Below are positions 8,944-47,355 of a stretch of 64,000 nucleotides of DNA, one piece after another. This stretch comes from Thermoanaerobaculaceae bacterium (GTDB lineage: Bacteria; Acidobacteriota; Thermoanaerobaculia; Multivoradales; UBA5704), in contig CAWAUI010000004.1 of the NCBI GenBank assembly GCA_963785165.1, forward strand, positions 3,712,074 through 3,776,073, given 5' to 3'. The notes below the pieces were generated by a model. That model worked only from the letters and a program-made list of their open reading frames with translations. It did no database searches and was not told the DNA's origin. Numbering within the stretch: position 1 is the stretch's first letter; every line of letters begins with the position of its first letter. The position numbers and the translations under genes are program-made.

Positions 8944-10320
8944 GTGAAGACCCGCATGTTCTGGAGTCTTGCCTTCCTTCTCCTGGCCTCGCCCCCGGCG
9001 TGGAGCCTGGAGGAGCCGGCGCGTTTTCTGATCGAGAGGATCACGGTCGAGGGGCCCGGCGAGGCCGCGGCCAACATCGTGCGGGCGGAGACCCTGCTGC
9101 GCGCGGGCGGCACCTACACGGAGGAGGAGCTCCGGCAGGCGATCTACCGCGTGCACCGGCTGCCGTTCGTGCTCGACGCCAGCTTCTCCCTGAAGAAAGG
9201 GAGCCGGCGGGGCGCCTACGAGCTGGCCGTCGACGTCGAGTCCAACCGCTGGTTCTTCTTCGACCACTACGTCCGCGCCTTCGGGTTCGACCAGCCGCTG
9301 GATCTGGAGGATGAAACCGTGCGGGGGGACCGCTCCAGCCTGACGCTGGGCGGCCTCGTGGGAGCCCGGCGTTTCGTGGGGCGCTCGGGCGTGGTGTTCG
9401 CGGCCCTGGACAGCCACGAGGGAGTCCAGGCGGGGTTCGCGCAGTACGACCTGTTCCACCGGGGGATCCTCGCCACGGCCGGCGTCTCCCTGAGCGAGTG
9501 CTGCGTCACCGAGGTGCTCCCCCTGGCGCTCGATCCCACCTTCTCTTCCTGGTCCTTCGGCACGTCGCTCAAGACCTCGCTGGGCCTCTCCATCCCCCTG
9601 GGCGGCCCGCGGTCGGTGCAGATCAGCCTGAGCGAGCGCCAGGGCGACGAGGGGACACGAAACGAGGTCTTCCTGGTCCCGGGCCAGCGGTTCAGCCACG
9701 TCACGGGCGAAGGGAGCGAGCTGACCTACCGCCGCGCCGAGGCCAAGTGGGTGTGGGACTCGACGGACGACCCCGCCCTGCCCACCCGGGGCACCAGCGT
9801 CTCGGCCGGGATGGAGGCCTCCCGCTTCGCCGCACGGGACCTGACGCTGTTCCAGTTCGGCCAGGCGCCCGGCGAGGTCACCACCACCTCCTACCCCTCG
9901 CTCCACTCCGAGCAGGTGGTGGCCGCGGTGGCCGCCCTCCGGTACTGGCCGGTGACGCCCCGCCAGACGGTATCCGTGCAGGCCCGGGTGGCGGCAGGGC
10001 AGTCCCGGCTGGACAATCTGGCCACGGGCGACATCGTCCTGCGCCACGTGGACGCGGACTATTACAGCGGCCTGGTGGGTCTCGCCCACGCCTTCACCCT
10101 ACGCCGCGCCCGGCAATCGGGCGAATCGGGCGAATCGGGCGTGCTCACGGACGTGCGCATCGAAAGCGGCGTCGAAATCGGCGCCGAGAAGACCTCTCCC
10201 GACCTCGGCCCCAGCCCCCTGGAGCGCCTCTCGGTCCACACCGGCCTGGTGTTCCGCAATCCCTGGGGACGGGTCGAGATCGTCTTCACCTACCTGGACC
10301 TGGGGGAAATCCGGCGATGA
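8944..10320 (+). CDS. outer-membrane Omp85-superfamily protein (POTRA domain plus beta-barrel)
   Basis: ORF is open from 8686, but the signal peptide (MFWSLAFLLLASPPAWS) starts only at GTG 8944 / ATG 8956. POTRA-like FLIERITVEGPGEAAANIV...EELRQAIYRVHRLPFV. DDPALPTRG motif and barrel-like alternating strands. Confidence 0.7.
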   Translation: MKTRMFWSLAFLLLASPPAWSLEEPARFLIERITVEGPGEAAANIVRAETLLRAGGTYTEEELRQAIYRVHRLPFVLDASFSLKKGSRRGAYELAVDVESNRWFFFDHYVRAFGFDQPLDLEDETVRGDRSSLTLGGLVGARRFVGRSGVVFAALDSHEGVQAGFAQYDLFHRGILATAGVSLSECCVTEVLPLALDPTFSSWSFGTSLKTSLGLSIPLGGPRSVQISLSERQGDEGTRNEVFLVPGQRFSHVTGEGSELTYRRAEAKWVWDSTDDPALPTRGTSVSAGMEASRFAARDLTLFQFGQAPGEVTTTSYPSLHSEQVVAAVAALRYWPVTPRQTVSVQARVAAGQSRLDNLATGDIVLRHVDADYYSGLVGLAHAFTLRRARQSGESGESGVLTDVRIESGVEIGAEKTSPDLGPSPLERLSVHTGLVFRNPWGRVEIVFTYLDLGEIRR

Positions 10321-10982: not shown

Positions 10983-12214
10983 GCTTCCGCTCCGCCGCCG
11001 TGACGCTCTGCGGCATGCTGCTCGCCGCCGGGGCGATCCTCTGGCTCTTCAACCGCCAGATCTCCGGCACCTGGCGGCTGGGCCTGCAACCGGAGATCAC
11101 CACGGCCCTGGAGCAGTCGCTCACGGACCAGAAGGCCCTGGCCAAGCTCGATCCCGGGCGCAAGGCCGAGTACCGCGCACGCTTCGAAGCCAACCAGAAA
11201 GTCCTCCAGCGGCTGTTGATCCTCCACAGCAACGAGAAAGACATCACCCGGCGCTGGGAGCTGATCCTGCTGGCCGCCGTCCTGGCCGTGCTCGGCGTGG
11301 CGGGCGGCGCCCAGATGATCCGCCAGGGGCGCCTCGACGCGCGCATCGAGCGCCTGCGGCTGGCCCTCGTGGCCCTCTCGGCCGGCGAGGAGGAGCTGGA
11401 GATCGGCGACCGTGGGCGGGACACGCTGGGCAGGATCGCCGGCATGATCGAGGAGACCTCCCGGGCCATGGCGCGGGACAGGAAGCGCCTCGCCTACCTC
11501 AAGAACCTCTCCGTCTGGCAGGAGACGGCCCGGCGGCACGCCCACGAGATGCGCACACCCCTGACCGCCGCCCGCCTGGAGCTTTCCCGCCTCCAGAGGC
11601 TCCTCGAAGGGGCGGAGCAGGACGACGCGCGCCAGGTGGCGGTCAGCGTGGGCGAGGAGCTGGAGCGGCTGGGCCGCTTCACCCAGCAGTTCACCTCCTT
11701 CGCCCGCCTCCCCCAGCCCCGTACGGCGGTGCACGACCTCGGCACCGTCGTGGAGGAGTTCGTGGGCACCTTCGCGAACGCCTGGCCGAATCTCACCCTG
11801 CGCTTCGAACCGGCAAGCAAGCCCTTGCCCGCGGCGCTCGACCGCGACATGCTCCGCCAGGTGTTGGTGAACCTCTGCGACAACAGCTCGCTCGCCCTCA
11901 AGAGCCAGGGGGAAGGGGCTCAGGGAGAAGGGGACAACCGAGGCACGGTGACCCTGCGGCCGGGCGAGGCGGGGCGGAGCGTTTTTCTCGACGTGGCGGA
12001 CGACGGCCCCGGGATCTCGCCCGAGATCCGCTCCCGGGTCTTCGAGCCCTACGTCACCACCCGGCAGGTGGGCGAGGGGATGGGCCTGGGGCTCGCCATC
12101 TGCAAGAAGATCCTCCTCGATCACGGCGGTGACCTGGAAGTCGCGGGCAGCTCCGGAGCGGGCACGACCTTCCGGCTCACCTTTCCCCGGCGCGTGGAGG
12201 ACGTTGCGGCATGA
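10979..12214 (+). CDS. membrane sensor histidine kinase
   Basis: ATG 10979 overlaps the upstream stop (ATGA). Two TM helices. H-box [14 protein letters not shown]. ATPase boxes [24 protein letters not shown]. Confidence 0.85.
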
Positions 12215-40334: not shown

Positions 40335-40641
40335 GGCGTAGCGCCCCTGGGAGCGCCGGCATCCCTGCCGGCCCTGTCTTTGCGGCCCGAAGGGTCGCGA
40401 GATTTCAGCCCAGGGCTTCGGCCGGTAGGCCGATGCCCTGGGAAGAAAACCTATAAAAAGGCTACGCGGCCTGAAAGGTCGCCAGAGAGTTTTGAGTTGG
40501 ACTCGACTCGGTCCGCCAGTGTTCTCGCGGCCCTTCAGGCCGCAGGACTGGGGGGGACTGTTAACCCAGGGCATCGGCCTACCGGCCGAAGCCCTGGGCT
40601 GAAATCTCGCGACCCTTCGGGCCGCAAAGAGCGCTACGCCA
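40335..40641. repeat. REP/BIME-like cluster: 64-nt perfect inverted repeat enclosing further copies of a 17-nt hairpin motif
   Basis: Arm 40378-40442 is the exact reverse complement of 40566-40629. The motif GCGGCC(C/T)GAA(G/A)GGTCGC occurs at about 40382 and 40466 (+) and about 40536 and 40609 (inverted). Outer ggcgtagcgc (40335) / gcgctacgcc (40632). Confidence 0.85.
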
Positions 40642-40849
40642 ACAGGTCAATCCTGCCTTGACAAAGCACCAGGGCGACACGCCACCGTTCTGGGAGCCCC
40701 AGCGGGGCGAAATCTGAACAGCCCGGTGCGTTAGCGCCGGGTCCGGAACCCACCCGCCTCCTCCGCCCTGGAGGGCCGGTCCCGTCTTCTCCTGATAGAA
40801 TTCCTTCAACCCCGGCGTCGGCCAGCCGTCGACAAGGAAGGAAAGATCG

Positions 40850-43219
40850 GTGAAAACACGCGATAGGGAAGATCTCTATGAGATCGCAGGCCAATTCGTC
40901 GGCTCCGCCCTGCGGCGAGACGACTCCTTATTCACTCCCGGAGAACCCGTCTGGTCCCCTCCCACCCTGGAGGATCTCCATCGCCGTTTCGTAGGCCAGC
41001 CGGACGAGTCCGCGGACAGCTTTGAGAACAAGCTGCAACGCCAACTCGCCGGGGCTCCGACCCGCACCGTCCAACTCATGGGTGAGGTTCTCTACGTTTA
41101 CCTTCTGATGCCGGTGGCGGAGAGCTTTCGGGGAGATAAAAAACGACGGTTGATTGAAACCGTCCTTCAATGGGCGCCGGAGCGCGTCGCCATGCCTCCG
41201 CATTTGGCGAAAGCTCTCGACGGAGGGCTCGTCCGAGTGGGAACGGCCTACAACACCTACCGCCCGTTCCAGCTCCAGTTCGTCATCGAGCAGGTGATGG
41301 CCTGGAAACGGCTGTCCGCCGAGGAACGTGCACGGGCTCTCGAAGATCCCTGGTTGTTCAAGGAAATTGTCTGGAGACTACCCATCTCCAAAGCCTACAT
41401 GGCACGCGAGGCGTTGATCCATCTCGTGTTTCCCGACGTCTTCGAAAACGTCATCGCCCGTGAAGCCAAGAAGCAAATCGCCTTGCGGCTGGCGGCCCTC
41501 TCCACCGAGCCGACGGAAGACGTCGACCGCAAGCTCCTCCAGATCCGGCAACATCTTGCTCAGGACTATGGCGCAACCTTCAGCTTCTATGACAAGGCGG
41601 TCCTCGGACGCTGGCAGGACGACACCAGCCGCTGGGGGCAATTCGTCCACTGGGCTAGGCGTTTCTACGAGCGCCCCGATTTCGACCAGCACGAGAGGGA
41701 TTACAAGCTCGCGGTCTCTCAAAATCTCGCCATGGCCCGGCAAGCTTTGGCGGACGGCGGACCCTGGCTCGCCGCTCTTCGAAAAGCTTTCGATTCGCCG
41801 AACAACCTGACGGGTTGGAGAACGAACGCCAGCTTCCTGAAATGGTGCGAAGTCAATCCACAAGAGGCGTCCCGGGCGCTGGCAACCTTGTGGACCGATC
41901 AAGGCTCCGTGACGCAGCGCATCCGGGAATTCCTGCGGCTGCTGCCGGACGAAGCTCTCCGTGGAGCGGGATCTCGCCTGACGTTGGCTTCTTTTCTCAA
42001 TATGGCATCGGAGCCTCATGACTATCCGGTCTATAGAGAAACCCCCATTCGCAAAGGCTGCGATCTCACGGGCTACCCCCGGCCCGAGCAGGCGGCGGAT
42101 GAAGGAGCCCTTTACGAGCACGCTCTGGGCTTCTTCGACCGCTTATCCGAGGAAGCCTCGGCTCGCGGCCTTGATTTGCGGGATCGGCTCGACGCACAGG
42201 GCGTCCTCTGGTCCGTCGTGAAGTCGACCGACGGCAACGTGGATTTTTCCAAGAAGGAGCAATCGGCATTTCTCCGTTACTTAGCGGGACTCCCCGCCGA
42301 TCCTCCTCCCATCGAGCCGAACGGAGAAGGCACTGCAGAAGTCATAGAGCTACCGAAGACCGGATCCGCCAAGACTCTCGAAGACCTTGCCCACGATCTC
42401 CTTCTGGACGCCGCCTATCTGCGGAAGATCGAGCGGCTACTGAAGGACAAGGGACAGGTGATCTTCCACGGTCCACCGGGTACCGGCAAGACCTTCGTAG
42501 CTCGGGAAATCGCCCGCTTCTTTGCCAGTGACGACGCAATCGAGTTGGTGCAGTTTCACCCCTCCTATTCCTACGAAGACTTTTTCGAGGGCTACCGCCC
42601 AAGCCGGTATGGTGGCGGCTTCAGCCTTCACAAAGGTCCTCTGAGGCGGCTGGCCGAGAAAGCGGCTGCCAAGACTAAGGACGACCTGCACTTTCTGATC
42701 ATCGACGAGATCAACCGCGGCAACCTGGCGAAGATCTTCGGCGAGCTCTACTTCCTCCTCGAATACCGCGATGAGAAGGTCTCCCTCCAGTATTCCGAGG
42801 AGCCGTTCTCGCTGCCTCCGAACCTGAGAGTGATCGGCACCATGAACACCACCGACCGCTCCATCGCCCTCGTGGATCTGGCGCTGCGGCGGCGCTTCCA
42901 TTTCGTACCGTTCACCCCGGCCGCACCTCCCGTCCAGGGACTTCTGCGGCGTTGGCTGGAACAGCACAAACCGAATCTTGTCTGGCTGGCCGAGGTCGTT
43001 GACCGGGCCAACGACCGCCTGGACAACCTGCACGGTGCCATCGGTCCCAGCTACTTCATGCAGAAGAACCTGGACGAGGAGAGTATCGAGCTGATCTGGG
43101 AGCACTCAGTCCTGCCCTATGTTGCGGAACTACTCTTCGGCGAAGAGGGCCGCCTCGAGGAGCTGCAATTGAGCCGCCTCCGCCCGGAGAATCCCGTTGG
43201 AACCCCTGACGCTTCATGA
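40850..43219 (+). CDS. mcrB: McrB-like AAA+ GTPase with a long uncharacterised N-terminal domain
   Basis: 789 aa, GTG start after AAGGAAGGAAAG. GPPGTGKT, LVQFHPSYSYEDFFEGYRP, IIDEINRGNLAKIFGEL, MNTTDRS (McrB signature MNxxDRS), LRRRFHF. Confidence 0.85.
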   Translation: MKTRDREDLYEIAGQFVGSALRRDDSLFTPGEPVWSPPTLEDLHRRFVGQPDESADSFENKLQRQLAGAPTRTVQLMGEVLYVYLLMPVAESFRGDKKRRLIETVLQWAPERVAMPPHLAKALDGGLVRVGTAYNTYRPFQLQFVIEQVMAWKRLSAEERARALEDPWLFKEIVWRLPISKAYMAREALIHLVFPDVFENVIAREAKKQIALRLAALSTEPTEDVDRKLLQIRQHLAQDYGATFSFYDKAVLGRWQDDTSRWGQFVHWARRFYERPDFDQHERDYKLAVSQNLAMARQALADGGPWLAALRKAFDSPNNLTGWRTNASFLKWCEVNPQEASRALATLWTDQGSVTQRIREFLRLLPDEALRGAGSRLTLASFLNMASEPHDYPVYRETPIRKGCDLTGYPRPEQAADEGALYEHALGFFDRLSEEASARGLDLRDRLDAQGVLWSVVKSTDGNVDFSKKEQSAFLRYLAGLPADPPPIEPNGEGTAEVIELPKTGSAKTLEDLAHDLLLDAAYLRKIERLLKDKGQVIFHGPPGTGKTFVAREIARFFASDDAIELVQFHPSYSYEDFFEGYRPSRYGGGFSLHKGPLRRLAEKAAAKTKDDLHFLIIDEINRGNLAKIFGELYFLLEYRDEKVSLQYSEEPFSLPPNLRVIGTMNTTDRSIALVDLALRRRFHFVPFTPAAPPVQGLLRRWLEQHKPNLVWLAEVVDRANDRLDNLHGAIGPSYFMQKNLDEESIELIWEHSVLPYVAELLFGEEGRLEELQLSRLRPENPVGTPDAS

Positions 43220-44447
43220 GCACGCCAAGACCCAGGGGATACGCCTTACGGCTGAGCAGCGGAACGCCATGTACGCTCTCGCTCCTTCCGTAACGCTCTC
43301 TCCCAGTCCCGGTCGCGAGGGTTGCTGGGATCTGACTCCCGGTTCGATCATTGGAGCGATGACTCTACCGGGCCTGGCGGTGATGATCCGCCCCAAGATC
43401 CTCATGGATCGAGTCCTATTCCTCTTGTCCTATGCCCTCGATCCCCGAAGTTGGAAGAACGGCCTCTTCCACTTCGAGGCTCGGAGCAATCTTCTGGAAG
43501 CCATCGTGCCGGGCTTCGTGCGCCAAGTAGGGAAAGCCTTCCGGCGAGGCCTGCTCCAGGGCTACAGGGTTGAAGAAGACGCCTTGATGGGCCTACGCGG
43601 CCGGCTCCGCTTTGATGACCAGCTTCGCCGTCGATTCGGCCGCCTGCCCCCTGTCGAAGTGCGTTTTGACGAATTCACGGTGGACATCGAGCCCAACCGC
43701 CTGATCCTGGCCGCGGTCGACCGTCTGGAGAAAATGCGGTTGCGCTCTCAGGATTCGCGGCGGTCCCTCGCCGGCCTCCATGCCGCCCTGGAGCGGGTCA
43801 GCCTGCGCGAGTACCCGGCGGCCCAGGTTCCGGAAATTGCGTACGACCGCCTGAACGAACACTATCGGGGAGCCGTGGAGCTGGCGCGGTTGATCCTGCG
43901 GTCGGTGTCCTTCGATCTCCGTCATGGCGGCGTCCAGTCGTCCGCTTTCCTCCTCGACATGAACGTGGTTTTTGAGACCTTCGTCGTTACCGCTCTCCGA
44001 GAGGCTCTGGGCGTCTCTCACCGGCAGTTCCCTCAGGGCGCGAGCGACCGGAACCTCTGGCTGGACCAAAAGCGAGCCGTCTCGCTCAAACCTGATCTCT
44101 CCTGGTGGGAAGGAAACACCTGCCACTTCGTGGGGGACGTCAAATACAAGCGAACGGCGGCCTCGGGCGGCCCCAATGCCGACATCTATCAGCTTCTCGC
44201 CTATACCATCGCCACCCGGCTCCCCGGCGGTCTCCTGATCTACGCCGCGGGAGAGGGCGAGCCCGCAATCCACGAAGTCCACGAGATCGGCAAACGGCTG
44301 GAGGTCTGCTCGCTCGACTTGAGCGGAGTTCCCACGGCGATTCTCATGCAGGTCGGAGAATTGGCGGAGAGGATCCGGGCGTCAGTCGTTGCCGCCAAGG
44401 CGGGGGCTGCCAGCCCCGGCTCCATAGGAGCCATAGGCTCCAATTAA
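43197..44447 (+). CDS. mcrC: McrC-like PD-(D/E)xK nuclease subunit
   Basis: 416 aa, TTG start after GGAGA, overlapping mcrB by 23 nt. LKPDLSWW...FVGDVKYK nuclease core. Confidence 0.8.
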   Translation: MEPLTLHEHAKTQGIRLTAEQRNAMYALAPSVTLSPSPGREGCWDLTPGSIIGAMTLPGLAVMIRPKILMDRVLFLLSYALDPRSWKNGLFHFEARSNLLEAIVPGFVRQVGKAFRRGLLQGYRVEEDALMGLRGRLRFDDQLRRRFGRLPPVEVRFDEFTVDIEPNRLILAAVDRLEKMRLRSQDSRRSLAGLHAALERVSLREYPAAQVPEIAYDRLNEHYRGAVELARLILRSVSFDLRHGGVQSSAFLLDMNVVFETFVVTALREALGVSHRQFPQGASDRNLWLDQKRAVSLKPDLSWWEGNTCHFVGDVKYKRTAASGGPNADIYQLLAYTIATRLPGGLLIYAAGEGEPAIHEVHEIGKRLEVCSLDLSGVPTAILMQVGELAERIRASVVAAKAGAASPGSIGAIGSN

Positions 44448-45908
44448 ATCGGAAACCACCTCACGGGACGATAGTAGACCGGCGTTCCAGCACTGCCAGG
44501 CGGCCGTCTGGGCGCCCACTTGATAATCCTCCATCAGCCCTTCAAACACCGAAGGCTCTGCCGCCGCATCCAACACGCCTCCGCTCCGTTCCCGTATGGC
44601 GGACTGAGGCAACAGCATCTCGGCGGCAAAGGCTCCGGAGCGCCGTCTGCGGGGACCGATGGCCCTGTTGGACGAGCCCGCTCCAACGGCCGGGCTCTCA
44701 GGTCCGCCGTCCAGCAGGAGATGCCCAACCCCTCGGAAGATCTCCATGTTTCTTGCCCAGGGTTTCCTCGTCTGGGGAGAAGAAAACAACAGAACCTTCC
44801 CGAACCCGTCCAGATGCCCGCCGATCGCCGCATGATTGTGCGTCGATTCAGGGCCGGAAAGATCATCAATTTCGATGTCGAAATGATCCATCAAGAAATC
44901 ATCAAGATTCTTCAAGGGTTGGCCGTTGAGCCCCAGGTCTCCGCGGATCAACTCGGCAGCCTGGTAGCCTTCTCTCTCAGGTCTTCCTCCAGACGCGACC
45001 TCGAGCGCTCTCAACCTCCGCCTCCGGAATTGGCCCTTCTTCTGCGAACGCGTTGTGCAATCACAGTCAACGACGACTCTGACTACGCCCTCCTCCAGAT
45101 CGAGATCGCGGATTGCCTGCACGGCGGCGCTGTCTTTGGACGTAGCCTGTTGAGGGAGCAGGAGGCGCGTCCGCAGGCCGGACTCTGAAGTCACTCCGAA
45201 TAGCGTTTCAACACCGGACCGAGAGAGGTCGAGCTCCAGTGCCAGTTGATCGAGCAAGCCAATTTCGAGTTGGTTCTCGAAAGCTCCTCGACCACGGCTC
45301 CAGGGGAAGGAGTCCGCGAGGCCGGATTCGAGCAGGCTGCTGCCGACAGAGTCCACGAAATCAGAAAGTGCCTGTTTTGCTTCTCTCCAGGGCACCGCAA
45401 AAATTCCGGCCTGAAAGAGGAACTCCGGCGCGCCGGGGCTGGCAAACCGAGCAGGGGCTGCGCTGATCCAAAGATTCTCGTCTGATCGCACGAAGGCAAG
45501 ATTGGGAAGCCAGGAGCCCTCGGCACCAGCGTGCAGAAAGTGGCCATTGCTCCATTCGAACCGCCGATCGTCCCAGGAATCTCCGTCGAACGACGCGGCC
45601 GGCGCGGAGTCTTTCCAGCTCTGTAACGCCACCATCAAATCGACGTCGGTGGGAAAGGCGCGCGCGGATTCTTCATACGCGATATATCGGGCATACCGCA
45701 CAAGCCAGTCCGCGATGGGAGCCAGTGGTACGTAGACGCCTTCATTCACACTTCGGGTGGCGGGAAACCAGTTGCGGCAGAAATTCTGGTCCGCGGCCCA
45801 AATGGCAAGCTGCGCCCAAGGTCCAAGCTCTCCCGGAGAACGGCGATCCCAACTCGGCGAAACCGGCTCGATATCAAAAGCAAGCCGGCGAACATCCCCG
45901 ATACGCAT
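44382..45908 (-). CDS. uncharacterised 508-aa protein with C-terminal ImmA/IrrE (COG2856)-like domain lacking the HExxH catalytic residues
   Basis: ATG 45908 overlaps the upstream stop (TGATG). GYQAAELIRGDLGLNGQPLKNLDDFL..., then FRGVGHLLLD where HELGH is expected, then RRSGAFAAEMLLPQ (the E.AN.FA..LLMP region). The N-terminal 320 aa have no recognisable motif. A/T-ending codons are frequent. Confidence 0.7.
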   Translation of the reverse strand: MRIGDVRRLAFDIEPVSPSWDRRSPGELGPWAQLAIWAADQNFCRNWFPATRSVNEGVYVPLAPIADWLVRYARYIAYEESARAFPTDVDLMVALQSWKDSAPAASFDGDSWDDRRFEWSNGHFLHAGAEGSWLPNLAFVRSDENLWISAAPARFASPGAPEFLFQAGIFAVPWREAKQALSDFVDSVGSSLLESGLADSFPWSRGRGAFENQLEIGLLDQLALELDLSRSGVETLFGVTSESGLRTRLLLPQQATSKDSAAVQAIRDLDLEEGVVRVVVDCDCTTRSQKKGQFRRRRLRALEVASGGRPEREGYQAAELIRGDLGLNGQPLKNLDDFLMDHFDIEIDDLSGPESTHNHAAIGGHLDGFGKVLLFSSPQTRKPWARNMEIFRGVGHLLLDGGPESPAVGAGSSNRAIGPRRRRSGAFAAEMLLPQSAIRERSGGVLDAAAEPSVFEGLMEDYQVGAQTAAWQCWNAGLLSSREVVSDLIGAYGSYGAGAGSPRLGGND

Positions 45909-46288
45909 CAGTTCAACTCCTTGACAAATTGCCTGTACTCCGCTGCGGTGATGAGACCGCCATCCCGCATTCTACGCAAAACAGGAGGTGGAACACGCCT
46001 GGTAGGATGACCGTGTACCACGATCGTTCCGTCCGGCATCTCGCGCGTAAGCTTGCACTCATAGAATTCCGGCCCCTCCGAAACCCGGCGAATTGCATAG
46101 CGTCGCGGTGTTTCAGGTTGGCCATCGGCAGATACACTTTGCCGGAGCAGTTCCTCTCTCTCCTGAATCGTCATATCAGGAGGACATTTCTCCTTGAAAG
46201 GGATCCACCTCGGAGGTCCTGCCTCCGACGTATGGACTTTGTGAGCCGGCGAAGGCTCATATTCGAAGCGAGGCCCCGGGGTGGTCAT
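45908..46288 (-). CDS. uncharacterised 126-aa protein co-transcribed with the pseudo-ImmA/IrrE gene
   Basis: ATG 46288 with AGGTGA SD. MTTPGPRFEYEPSPAHKVH...FYECKLTREMPDGTIVVHGHPTRRVPPPVLRRMRDGGLITAAEYRQFVKELN. The longer ORF-track version (to 46729) runs through a non-coding repeat. Confidence 0.6.
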   Translation of the reverse strand: MTTPGPRFEYEPSPAHKVHTSEAGPPRWIPFKEKCPPDMTIQEREELLRQSVSADGQPETPRRYAIRRVSEGPEFYECKLTREMPDGTIVVHGHPTRRVPPPVLRRMRDGGLITAAEYRQFVKELN

Positions 46289-46308
46289 CGTATTCACCTG
46301 ACACCGGC

Positions 46309-46314
46309 ATTCTA
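46309..46314 (-). promoter_or_regulatory. -10 hexamer TAGAAT for the 126-aa/508-aa operon
   Basis: Minus strand gggTAGAATgccggtgtcAGGTGAatacgATG. Confidence 0.4.
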
Positions 46315-46398
46315 CCCCACTGCCGTCGGCGACCGCCGGGAGCCGCCTTGACACACCAAGCGCCGCTTCCCAGCCCTCCGGGAGCCGGGGCGCAACAT

Positions 46399-46692
46399 TC
46401 GCCCCGGCCCCTCGGCCGGTTTCCCCTCGGGGCCAACGATGCGGCCCGAGTCCGCGGCCTTGCGGCCCTCGGGGTAAAGGACCGCGGAGGCGGGGAAAGC
46501 GGCGTTCCCCGAGGGGCCAACGGCTTTCCCCTCTGGCCTGATGAGTTTCCCCTTCTCCTCGATGGCGCGGCCCGAGGGGCCAATGATGCGGCCCGAGGGG
46601 CGAACGTTGCGGCCCTCTTCCCGAATGGGGCGGCCCTCGGGGAAACTGGCCGGCCCCTGGGGGAAACTCGGTTTCCCCGCGGGGTAAGCCGC
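46399..46692. repeat. degenerate 21-bp tandem repeat, 14 units
   Basis: Exact 21-nt register from 46399 to 46692. Example units: gcggcccgaggggccaatgat, gcggcccgaggggcgaacgtt, gcggccctcggggaaactggc, tttcccctcggggccaacgat, tttccccgcggggtaagccgc. Core is CCC-N2-GGGG. Confidence 0.85.
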
Positions 46693-46709
46693 CTACCCCG
46701 GTTCCGCGA

Positions 46710-46715
46710 TAGGCT
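46710..46715 (+). promoter_or_regulatory. -10 hexamer TAGGCT, 7 nt before ATG 46723 (leaderless-type)
   Basis: cgcGATAGGCTgaaggccATG; no SD. Same GCGATAGNCT-N7-ATG layout as at 50401. Confidence 0.45.
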
Positions 46716-46722
46716 GAAGGCC

Positions 46723-47355
46723 ATGCCAAACCCTCGAGGCCGCTCCCCCAGGGAGCCGCTCATCCTCCTCGCCCTCACGGCCGTGGCCCTGGTCGTCTCG
46801 GGCGTCCACCCTGAAGACCGCACGACGTGGATCCTCGAAGTGGCCCCGATCTTCCTCGGCGTGCCCCTGCTGATCGCCACGTACCGGCGTTTTCCGTTGA
46901 CGCCGCTGCTCTACCGCCTGATCTTCCTCCACTCGCTGATCCTGATCCTCGGCGGCCACTACACCTACGCCAAGGTGCCGCTTGGATTCTGGGTGCAGGA
47001 CTTGATGGGCTTCGCGCGCAATCATTACGACCGGCTCGGCCATTTCGCCCAGGGCTTCGTGCCGGCCCTCCTGGCGCGCGAGATCCTGATCCGGAAGTCT
47101 CCGCTGCGGCCCGGCGGCTGGCTTTTCTTCCTCGTCACCTGCGTTTGCCTGGCCTTCAGCGCCACCTACGAATTCATCGAATGGTGGTCCGCCGTGCTCG
47201 GAGGCTCGGCCGCCGATGCCTTCCTCGGCACGCAGGGCGACGTGTGGGATACGCAGTGGGACATGTTCCTCGCTCTCATTGGAGCGCTCACCGCGCAGGT
47301 GACTCTGGCGCGGGTTCAGGACCGGCAGATGGCCGAGCTCAGCGCAGGAAAGTGA
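46723..47355 (+). CDS. yjdF: YjdF/DUF2238-family inner membrane protein
   Basis: 210 aa. GGHYTYAKVP, RNHYDRLGHFAQGFVPA, YEFIEWW, GTQGDVWDTQWDMFLALIGA. Confidence 0.8.
   Translation: MPNPRGRSPREPLILLALTAVALVVSGVHPEDRTTWILEVAPIFLGVPLLIATYRRFPLTPLLYRLIFLHSLILILGGHYTYAKVPLGFWVQDLMGFARNHYDRLGHFAQGFVPALLAREILIRKSPLRPGGWLFFLVTCVCLAFSATYEFIEWWSAVLGGSAADAFLGTQGDVWDTQWDMFLALIGALTAQVTLARVQDRQMAELSAGK

Follow-up and report, generated by a model that had tools for sequence, protein, structure and literature searches.

A two-gene module, probably a toxin-antidote cassette, with a family-wide dead ImmA/IrrE domain in a Thermoanaerobaculaceae bacterium

Introduction

Beside the mcrBC genes of a Thermoanaerobaculaceae bacterium, two overlapping minus-strand genes encode proteins of 126 and 508 amino acids (aa). 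They lie in contig CAWAUI010000004.1 of assembly GCA_963785165.1, within a stretch of 64,000 nucleotides (positions 3,712,074 to 3,776,073 of the forward strand), which is called the window below. What are these two proteins, and do they belong to the restriction system next to them? An earlier sequence-only reading had described an uncharacterised module with a pseudo-ImmA/IrrE protein and had suggested a sensor/effector unit of a defence islet. In our study, the observation itself was confirmed and its interpretation was partly supported. We found that the module is probably a mobile toxin-antidote cassette that arose from a polymorphic-toxin/immunity pair and whose antidote carries a non-catalytic ImmA/IrrE domain. 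The architecture, in which an immunity domain is joined to a pseudo-ImmA/IrrE domain, and the family-wide dead protease are new.

Both genes are real. The large protein belongs to a family of 103 homologous clusters (~500 aa, aligned end to end) and the small protein to one of 128 clusters, and their AlphaFold2 (AF2) models had a predicted local distance difference test score (pLDDT) of 93.7 and 82.3, respectively; the predicted template modelling score (pTM) of the large model was 0.91.

Small protein

The members of the small family were almost always free-standing proteins of ~120 aa. A profile search of 1.84 billion representative proteins recovered just 113 relatives, and the weaker matches among them, significant library-wide, included C-terminal domains of longer proteins. 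One such relative (P0330) contained a pretoxin HINT (PT-HINT) domain (PF07591, E 1.8e-16), and another (P0299) was encoded after two WXG100 genes. Metagenome contigs fished with versions of the P0330/P0299 type gave 21 loci; here the domain was found at the tip of a protein (at least 1426 aa) that carries an Rhs-associated core and 19 RHS repeats, and also at the tip of a Fil_haemagg_2 protein (at least 789 aa) and of a DUF637 protein. The hhalign comparison of the stand-alone family with the polymorphic-toxin versions had a probability of 99.7% (E 1.4e-25), and Y10, H16 and H92-G-x-P (the HG[YH]P motif) were common to the stand-alone and the secreted versions. The domain is taken as a toxin domain because such an architecture is the standard criterion for polymorphic toxins (Zhang et al., 2012, PMC3482391), and, as judged from sequence, the small protein represents the C-terminal domain of polymorphic toxins in free-standing form. 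The sequence-only reading had recognised no match for either the small protein or the 320-aa N-terminal region of the large one. This did not stand, as the former matched toxin tips and the latter a cognate immunity domain with a CdiI-like fold.

The N-terminal segment of the small protein (residues 8-37) contained near-invariant Y10, H16, K17, E22, G24-P25-P26, W28, K32 and C35-P36 residues, and it bore a 9-residue insertion of the TTEAGPP type relative to the polymorphic-toxin versions. The segment was poorly modelled by AF2 (pLDDT 54-71), followed by a helix (41-49), a three-stranded sheet (63-69, 72-83 and 89-96) ending in the invariant H92-G93-x-P95, and two C-terminal helices. The Pfam SHOCT match of the protein (E 0.016) was under the cut-off, and an equally weak match was present in the homologues and in the polymorphic-toxin versions. 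The Tyr/His/Lys/His signature, together with a weak likeness to the BECR-type tRNases of contact-dependent inhibition (CDI) and to CdiA-CT 5T87, weakly suggests a metal-independent nuclease, probably an RNase.

Two loci contained related domains in other settings. The compact locus L073 (381-2863) contained two WXG100 genes, followed by genes for proteins of 209 aa, of 228 aa (a toxin with the related domain at its C-terminus) and of 172 aa (the immunity protein); it is a candidate effector locus of a type VII secretion system carrying an uncatalogued toxin domain. In L090 (3945-5755), an 82-aa open reading frame (ORF) related to the toxin domain was directly followed by an overlapping gene for a 522-aa CARF-like and Csm6-HEPN protein; this may be another pairing of toxin and partner, with a link to cyclic-oligonucleotide signalling.

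Large protein

The large protein consists of an immunity domain, a helical linker (~196-305) and a dead ImmA/IrrE domain (~306-498), as was found from structural homology and from homology to proteins in the immunity position. The top Foldseek match of the whole model was CdiI of Burkholderia dolosa (5ffp_A, E 3e-3, prob 1.0, TMt 0.59), followed by weaker matches to PURA and Whirly (E 0.15-0.6). The 5FFP structure is classed as sPC4L, a scaffold of two beta-beta-beta-beta-alpha units that serves both toxin binding and nucleic-acid binding (PMC9424270), and the AF2 secondary structure of residues 1-195 showed two beta-sheet/helix units. In the polymorphic-toxin loci, the ORF directly downstream of the toxin (160-220 aa) belonged to one family in 12 loci. 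A profile of these 12 sequences was aligned with residues 7-149 of the large protein at an hhalign probability of 94.9% (E 4.3e-8); with two sequences alone the comparison had given 28% (E 6e-4), so the signal rose with sampling. The alignment omitted nine loci with unrelated downstream ORFs (L078, L083-L085, L087, L089-L091 and L094; the ORFs encoded FGGY kinase, DUF4058, cytochrome c, Csm6-like CARF-HEPN and AAA_21 proteins) and the loci L088 and L092, which had no downstream ORF. Downstream of two distant stand-alone toxin homologues, on short contigs, lay a gene of which the visible N-terminus likewise matched the hidden Markov model of the large family (E 1e-17 and 6e-11). The N-terminal region of the large protein is thus predicted to be the cognate immunity domain with a CdiI-like sPC4L fold.

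The window protein itself had no Pfam match, and no helix-turn-helix (HTH) domain was found in it. Among the sampled full-length homologues, however, 28 of 46 matched PF06114 (best E 3e-9), several of them clearing the gathering score (26-32 bits against a cut-off of 22), and Foldseek matched the large model to Mycobacterium tuberculosis PrpR (6cyj, prob 0.98) and to IrrE (3dti, prob 0.87). These matches bear out the ImmA/IrrE-like C-terminal domain proposed earlier. The PADLOC model of RmrA gave a faint match (E 0.016, 12.4 bits, residues 423-483 only), and the NCBIfam model of the spr1629 antitoxin gave E 0.1 for the window protein and 8e-7 for the homologue P0043; the two faint matches of the window protein fell within its residues ~386-483. 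Sequence-profile searches of the PDB with the full large protein, the partners of its N-domain and its C-domain gave nothing significant, and IrrE was not recovered.

The HExxH motif was present in none of 100 full-length homologues. All of them contained Arg at the position of the first His, and essentially all contained R-[AG]-x-G-H. The Pfam matches began at RFExxRALGH (RFESVRALGH, profile position 43 onward), which placed R-A-L-G-H in register with H-E-x-x-H. Since R-x-x-G-H was found in all 100 homologues, the RGVGH of the window protein is characteristic of its family and no artefact of sequencing, and the idea that a corrected sequence might align with an active HExxH member can be set aside. 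The replacement of HExxH that had been noticed in this one protein therefore extends to the whole family; the first zinc His and the catalytic Glu are lost, and the domain is predicted to be a true pseudo-peptidase family-wide.

In M78 peptidases, the third zinc ligand is a Glu that lies ~25-30 residues past the HExxH motif. The large-protein homologues contained a nearly invariant RRRRSGAFAAE(L/M)LLP motif, and, by its spacing only, R420-E430 would be the equivalent of the third zinc-ligand region, with Arg where an acidic residue is expected. The dead peptidase domain and the immunity domain were about equally conserved (mean pairwise distance 0.54 and 0.56, respectively), whereas the linker was the most divergent part of the protein (0.71).

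Conservation and neighborhoods of the pair

A scan of one genome per species gave 62 loci with the large gene. The loci spanned Acidobacteriota, Myxococcota, Binatia, Spirochaetia, Alpha- and Gammaproteobacteria, Actinomycetota, Cyanobium and Thermodesulfobacteriota. A homologue of the small protein ended at, or a few nucleotides from, the start of the large gene in at least 50 of the 62, and the commonest geometry was an overlap or gap of -7 to +3 nt. The pair is thus a genuine conserved two-gene module, as had been supposed. The pairwise distances of the two proteins were correlated (r ~0.86), and all-against-all clustering of the flanking ORFs showed no third conserved gene.

The neighborhoods of the module varied. 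The closest homologues (74-75% identity) had neighbors unrelated to McrBC, such as glycosyltransferase, fatty-acid and other housekeeping genes. The annotated neighborhoods included glycosyltransferases with formate dehydrogenase, thiolase with enoyl-CoA hydratases, LexA with a secretion ATPase, and a transposase with PIN-type TA genes. Our survey of nearest neighbors covered 150 ORFs from 49 loci; no Pfam family was found more than twice, no PADLOC family in more than three ORFs, and the Pfam picture was mostly metabolic. HTH_3 was found in 2 of the 150 ORFs, in agreement with the earlier remark that the usual Xre-type HTH partner is absent. The GC content at third codon positions (GC3) of the large gene was more than 0.05 below that of its flanks in 27 of 47 loci and above it in none, in a comparison whose flanking-ORF filter mildly favours high GC3. 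The picture is that of an autonomous, horizontally moving two-gene cassette, which is sometimes present in defence islands, as it is in the window, and is not tied to McrBC.

Several single loci are worth recording. In L063 (uncultured Acidobacteriota chromosome OY969112, the closest homologue), the small gene is present at 9581-10000 with 80% identity, and the record omits it, with no called gene between 9501 and 10001. Annotation of the toxin partner is probably incomplete in public genomes. In L021 and L040, the large gene was cut by in-frame stops (234 and 344 aa readable) and the toxin gene looked intact. These may be decaying copies or assembly errors and, if real, they would argue against strong toxicity in those hosts. 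ImmA/IrrE systems are usually tied to DNA-damage signalling. In a single case, the Acidobacteriota metagenome-assembled genome of L066, a LexA gene (LexA_DNA_bind and Peptidase_S24; 11508-12182) was convergent with the module and directly downstream of it.

Proposed mode of action

In the reading that we consider likely, the 126-aa protein would be a cytoplasmic, free-standing toxin, predicted to be toxic inside the cell, and the 508-aa antidote would be translated from the same mRNA by coupling. To judge from homology and gene order, the sPC4L/CdiI-like domain (~1-195) would bind and block the toxin one-to-one. The dead peptidase would act as a non-catalytic sensor or regulatory module that controls the sequestration or release of the toxin. 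By motif register and spacing, the arginines R392 and R420-423 would occupy the former metal-ligand positions, and the ligand may be a peptide or an anionic compound. Candidate peptides would be the invariant N-terminal segment of the toxin or a protein of an invader. The toxin segment is a candidate, as a speculation, because the secreted versions have neither its insertion nor, in their immunity proteins, an ImmA-like domain. The module would behave as a type II toxin-antitoxin (TA) or Rosmer-like abortive-infection or addiction cassette. The sensor/effector idea of the sequence-only reading fits the finding of a toxin family, an immunity family and a dead peptidase.

Several results weigh against this reading. 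Searches of Pfam, NCBIfam, PADLOC and PHROGs with both module proteins gave nothing significant; neither the toxin domain nor the immunity domain has a model in the first three of these, and the label of toxin therefore follows from the logic of domain architecture. The homology of the immunity domain was found at the profile-profile level only (95%), from an alignment of 12 sequences. The small protein matched no known toxin fold at a significant level: Foldseek of its model against the PDB gave E 0.06-0.3 at best (the best hints being CdiA-CT of Escherichia coli 3006 with prob 0.69 and 0.47, MqsR and RNase 1), the viral library gave weak matches only, and a sequence-profile search of the PDB with the toxin gave nothing significant, 5T87 CdiA-CT being the best at E 0.1. 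AF2 confidence is low in the segment that contains the candidate catalytic residues Y10, H16 and K17. A mirror-tree partial correlation, used to find the large-protein domain that co-evolves with the toxin, was not discriminating (0.47 against 0.39). The large protein had no tblastn match in plasmid and phage collections. The pair is conserved together, but its association with defence genes is weak and scattered rather than recurrent, by raw counts with no background control.

A more specific form of the proposal is a new kind of abortive-infection switch, in which the dead ImmA/IrrE domain fused to the immunity protein would be a decoy or receptor, and an invader product would free a previously uncatalogued two-histidine nuclease toxin. 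The Arg-lined former active site would hold the N-terminal peptide of the toxin, or a nucleotide-like signal, until the invader displaces it. We regard this form as doubtful. If it is true, it would be the first pseudo-protease sensor in a TA or defence system and would connect contact-dependent warfare directly with intracellular immunity in evolution.

The module defines a toxin family and a matching immunity family that are absent from Pfam, NCBIfam and PADLOC as models. One toxin/immunity pair appears to be used in two lifestyles, as the tip of secreted Rhs/CdiA/HINT weapons and as a stand-alone intracellular cassette. It also provides a family-wide pseudo-enzyme, in which the ImmA/IrrE fold is kept and the metal site, to judge from motif register and spacing, is swapped for arginines. 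If the dead domain is a sensor, it would explain how an immunity protein can become a triggerable antitoxin, and the Rosmer/ImmA group of defence systems would gain a branch that works without proteolysis.

Competing explanations

The most serious competitor is a selfish addiction module, a classical type II TA pair in which the pseudo-ImmA/IrrE domain serves dimerisation, stability or autoregulation and does not sense infection. We consider it somewhat unlikely, yet much of the neighborhood evidence agrees with it: the neighbors are mostly housekeeping or metabolic genes, no defence neighbor recurs, the distribution is patchy with a foreign composition, and one locus lies beside a transposase and PIN-type (VapBC-type) TA genes. 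A domain kept for stability alone is less easily reconciled with the dead domain, which is as conserved as the immunity domain and contains an invariant Arg-rich motif; from these two properties a specific binding function is suggested. Some loci also lie beside Cas1, PD-Lambda-5 (A and B), ThsB, mad3/mad8 (MADS) or McrB-like genes, with further isolated strong matches to AriA-like and MTase_II genes, and the window copy abuts McrBC. Systems with ImmA-type antitoxins are, moreover, enriched in phage defence.

The module might instead be an orphan or reserve cassette for competition between bacteria, whose toxin is exported or recombined onto rhs/cdiA and whose large protein guards the cell against its siblings. 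The domain family is common to Rhs, FilH, PT-HINT and WXG100-linked toxins, the order of toxin then immunity gene is the same, and one locus (L047) contained an RHS gene ~7 kb upstream. In the remaining 61 of 62 loci and in the window, however, no RHS/FilH-type gene was found within 10 kb, and the idea was largely rejected on this count. The small gene, moreover, has its own ATG and Shine-Dalgarno sequence and is devoid of any trafficking region, pre-toxin region or region of recombination homology. A conserved N-terminal insertion is peculiar to the stand-alone family, and the partner always contains an extra 300 aa that are absent from the immunity proteins of the secreted toxins. We find such a cassette improbable.

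A non-toxic regulatory pair would be another possibility, to which we likewise give little credence. Here the ImmA/IrrE-like domain would recognise the small protein as its ligand or pseudo-substrate, in a switch of the anti-repressor type, and nucleic acid would be bound by the sPC4L domain, which would stand in for the usual HTH. The sPC4L folds (PUR, Whirly, PC4) commonly bind single-stranded DNA or RNA and were among the weak Foldseek matches; COG2856 proteins usually have DNA-binding partners, on which or with which they act, and the adjacency of LexA in one locus would also agree with regulation. Against this, the relatives of the small protein occupy the toxin position in four classes of secreted toxins, the closest relatives of the N-domain occupy the immunity position, and the CdiI match was far stronger than those to PUR and Whirly (E 3e-3 against 0.15-0.6).

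That the module assists or regulates the McrBC restriction system next to it is very improbable and was rejected from the neighborhoods of the 62 loci; the argument that the sequence-only reading drew from the location beside mcrC in a defence islet was not borne out. The adjacency to mcrC with overlapping 3' ends, the low-GC islet common to both and a McrB-like ATPase within a few kb of two other loci speak for such a role, but none of the 62 loci has McrC and 60 of them have no McrB-like gene, the closest homologues have unrelated neighbors, the GC3 of the module differs from that of mcrBC, and the convergent orientation precludes a shared transcript.

Comparison with known systems

The module resembles the polymorphic toxin/immunity pairs (Zhang et al., 2012, PMC3482391) in the order of toxin then immunity gene and in the homology of both the toxin tip and the downstream protein, and the sPC4L immunity fold of its large protein is shared with CdiI 5FFP and 4NTQ. 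It differs from them in a free-standing toxin that is devoid of trafficking, repeat and pre-toxin domains, with no secretion genes nearby, and that contains the family-specific N-terminal insertion. Its immunity protein, unlike theirs, carries the extra ~110-aa linker and the ~190-aa ImmA/IrrE-like domain. Some polymorphic-toxin domains (RES, BECR RNases and Ntox24) are also found in TA systems (Zhang et al., 2012). The toxin is reminiscent of Ntox24, compared by published description only, in a Y, H, H signature, in the HINT/RHS/FilH/WXG contexts and in the occurrence in novel type II TA systems whose antitoxin is uncharacterised. An all-beta fold and Imm50/Imm53 immunity proteins are described for Ntox24, in contrast to the alpha+beta toxin of the module, and the toxin and immunity proteins of the module matched no Pfam toxin or Imm model.

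RosmerTA (Millman et al., 2022) and the NetFlax node D25 (PMC10440598) are TA systems with ImmA-domain antitoxins. The module resembles them in the layout of a two-gene, often toxin-first operon, in which an uncharacterised putative toxin is paired with a predicted antitoxin that contains an ImmA/IrrE (Zn-peptidase-type) domain, here catalytically dead. Unlike RosmerTA, it has the sPC4L immunity domain in place of an N-terminal HTH; the RmrA score was far below significance, and the small protein had no PADLOC match and was unrelated to the listed RmrT models. HExxH is lost in all members, and a cleavage-based mechanism is therefore excluded. As in type II TA systems in general, the two genes form an adjacent overlapping pair with a patchy phyletic distribution and signs of horizontal transfer.

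With ImmA/IrrE proteins (COG2856, Peptidase_M78; ImmA of Bacillus subtilis and IrrE of Deinococcus), the large protein shares the fold and family-level sequence homology. It differs from them in that R-G/A-x-G-H replaces the catalytic Glu and the first zinc His, no cognate XRE repressor is present, and the domain sits C-terminal to unrelated domains. Regulators of the MtPrpR/RamB type (6CYJ, 6CYY and 6CZ6), the second-best structural match, also contain an IrrE-like domain without the HEXXH residues. MtPrpR uses this domain as a non-proteolytic ligand-binding module, which forms a coenzyme A-binding cavity with the adjacent GAF-like domain (PMC6765138). PrpR, a regulator of the methylcitrate cycle, differs from the module in its HTH, its GAF-like domain and its [4Fe-4S] cluster.

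Features of the locus

The coordinates of the module are given in Table 1. The ORFs and the TGATG coupling described earlier were confirmed from the sequence. In the mechanical ORF list, the small ORF starts at a TTG (46729) and reads through a GC-rich repeat array; this added stretch was unconserved in the homologues. The claim that the module has its own TAGAAT promoter could not be upheld: no acceptable -35 element accompanies the hexamer and a consensus scan of 44000-47000 gave no promoter-like sites, so the promoter is unverified.

Table 1. Coordinates of the two genes, their predicted domains and their sequence elements in the window
Feature	Coordinates	Strand	Basis
Small gene, 126 aa + stop (ATG 46288, TGA 45910-45908), predicted free-standing toxin domain	45908..46288	-	ORF, homology
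Toxin residues 8-37, nearly invariant N-terminal segment FEYEPSPAHKVHTSEAGPPRWIPFKEKCPP	46178..46267	-	Alignments
Toxin residues 38-97, alpha+beta core	45998..46177	-	AF2, pLDDT 89-94
Toxin residues 98-126, two C-terminal helices (101-109, 115-125), SHOCT-like	45911..45997	-	AF2, Pfam
Large gene, 508 aa + stop (ATG 45908, stop 44384-44382), predicted immunity/antitoxin protein with pseudo-ImmA/IrrE domain	44382..45908	-	ORF, homology
Residues 1-195, predicted immunity domain, CdiI-like sPC4L fold	45324..45908	-	Foldseek, hhalign
Residues 196-305, helical linker with conserved LRDL motif (R267, D268, L269)	44994..45323	-	AF2, alignment
Residues 306-498, ImmA/IrrE (Peptidase_M78)-like predicted pseudo-peptidase	44415..44993	-	Pfam of homologues, Foldseek
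R392-G-V-G-H396 in place of HExxH	44721..44735	-	Sequence read
R420-RRRSGAFAAE430, conserved Arg run and FAAE, 3' of the degenerate metal site	44619..44651	-	Alignments
TGATG stop/start overlap, 1 nt shared, translational coupling	45906..45910	-	Sequence read
AGGTGA, Shine-Dalgarno-like, 5 nt 5' of ATG 46288	46294..46299	-	Sequence read
TAGAAT, -10-like hexamer, unverified promoter element	46309..46314	-	Sequence read

The codon usage of both module genes is foreign or atypical, as had been remarked. The GC3 was 0.57 in the small gene and 0.65 in the large gene, whereas it was 0.72 in mcrB, 0.75 in mcrC and 0.81-0.92 in the flanking housekeeping genes. The low-GC islet spans ~40800 to 46300; a tRNA/integrase boundary was sought for it, and no tRNAs were found within the window.

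The adjoining McrB (AAA_5) and McrC (PF10117, E 7e-53) were confirmed by Pfam. The earlier description of the large gene as lying tail-to-tail with mcrC was right in that the two genes converge, and needs correction in that their 3' ends overlap by 66 nt (44382-44447). The overlap involves the tail of the large protein, of which residues 499-508 are unstructured in AF2 and which as a whole is unconserved, and the tail of McrC encoded by its 3' end, beyond its Pfam match (residues 48-350 of 416). These tails and the different GC3 of the two units suggest that the module and mcrBC were acquired separately and came together recently.

At 40850-42400, in the gene of the McrB homologue (789 aa), the N-terminal ~520 aa of the protein matched no Pfam family, and the AAA_5 GTPase module (residues 537-683) alone was recognised. 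An extended -10-like sequence, TGATAGAAT, precedes mcrB near 40793-40801.

The ~430 bp of intergenic DNA between the small gene and a divergent membrane-protein gene contained an array (46400-46710) resembling repetitive extragenic palindromic (REP) elements. The array consists of ~21-nt GC-rich palindromic units of the GGGG...CCCC type in direct and inverted copies, and it yields spurious long ORFs on both strands; the true start of the membrane-protein gene is likely near 46720. In the intergenic region 5' of mcrB (40377-40630), a perfect 66-nt inverted repeat was found, with arms at 40377-40442 and 40565-40630 and 122 nt between them. A second, 21-nt inverted repeat was nested within it, and the element was present as a single copy in the window. 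Lying at the edge of the low-GC islet, it could be a long hairpin or an element resembling miniature inverted-repeat transposable elements.

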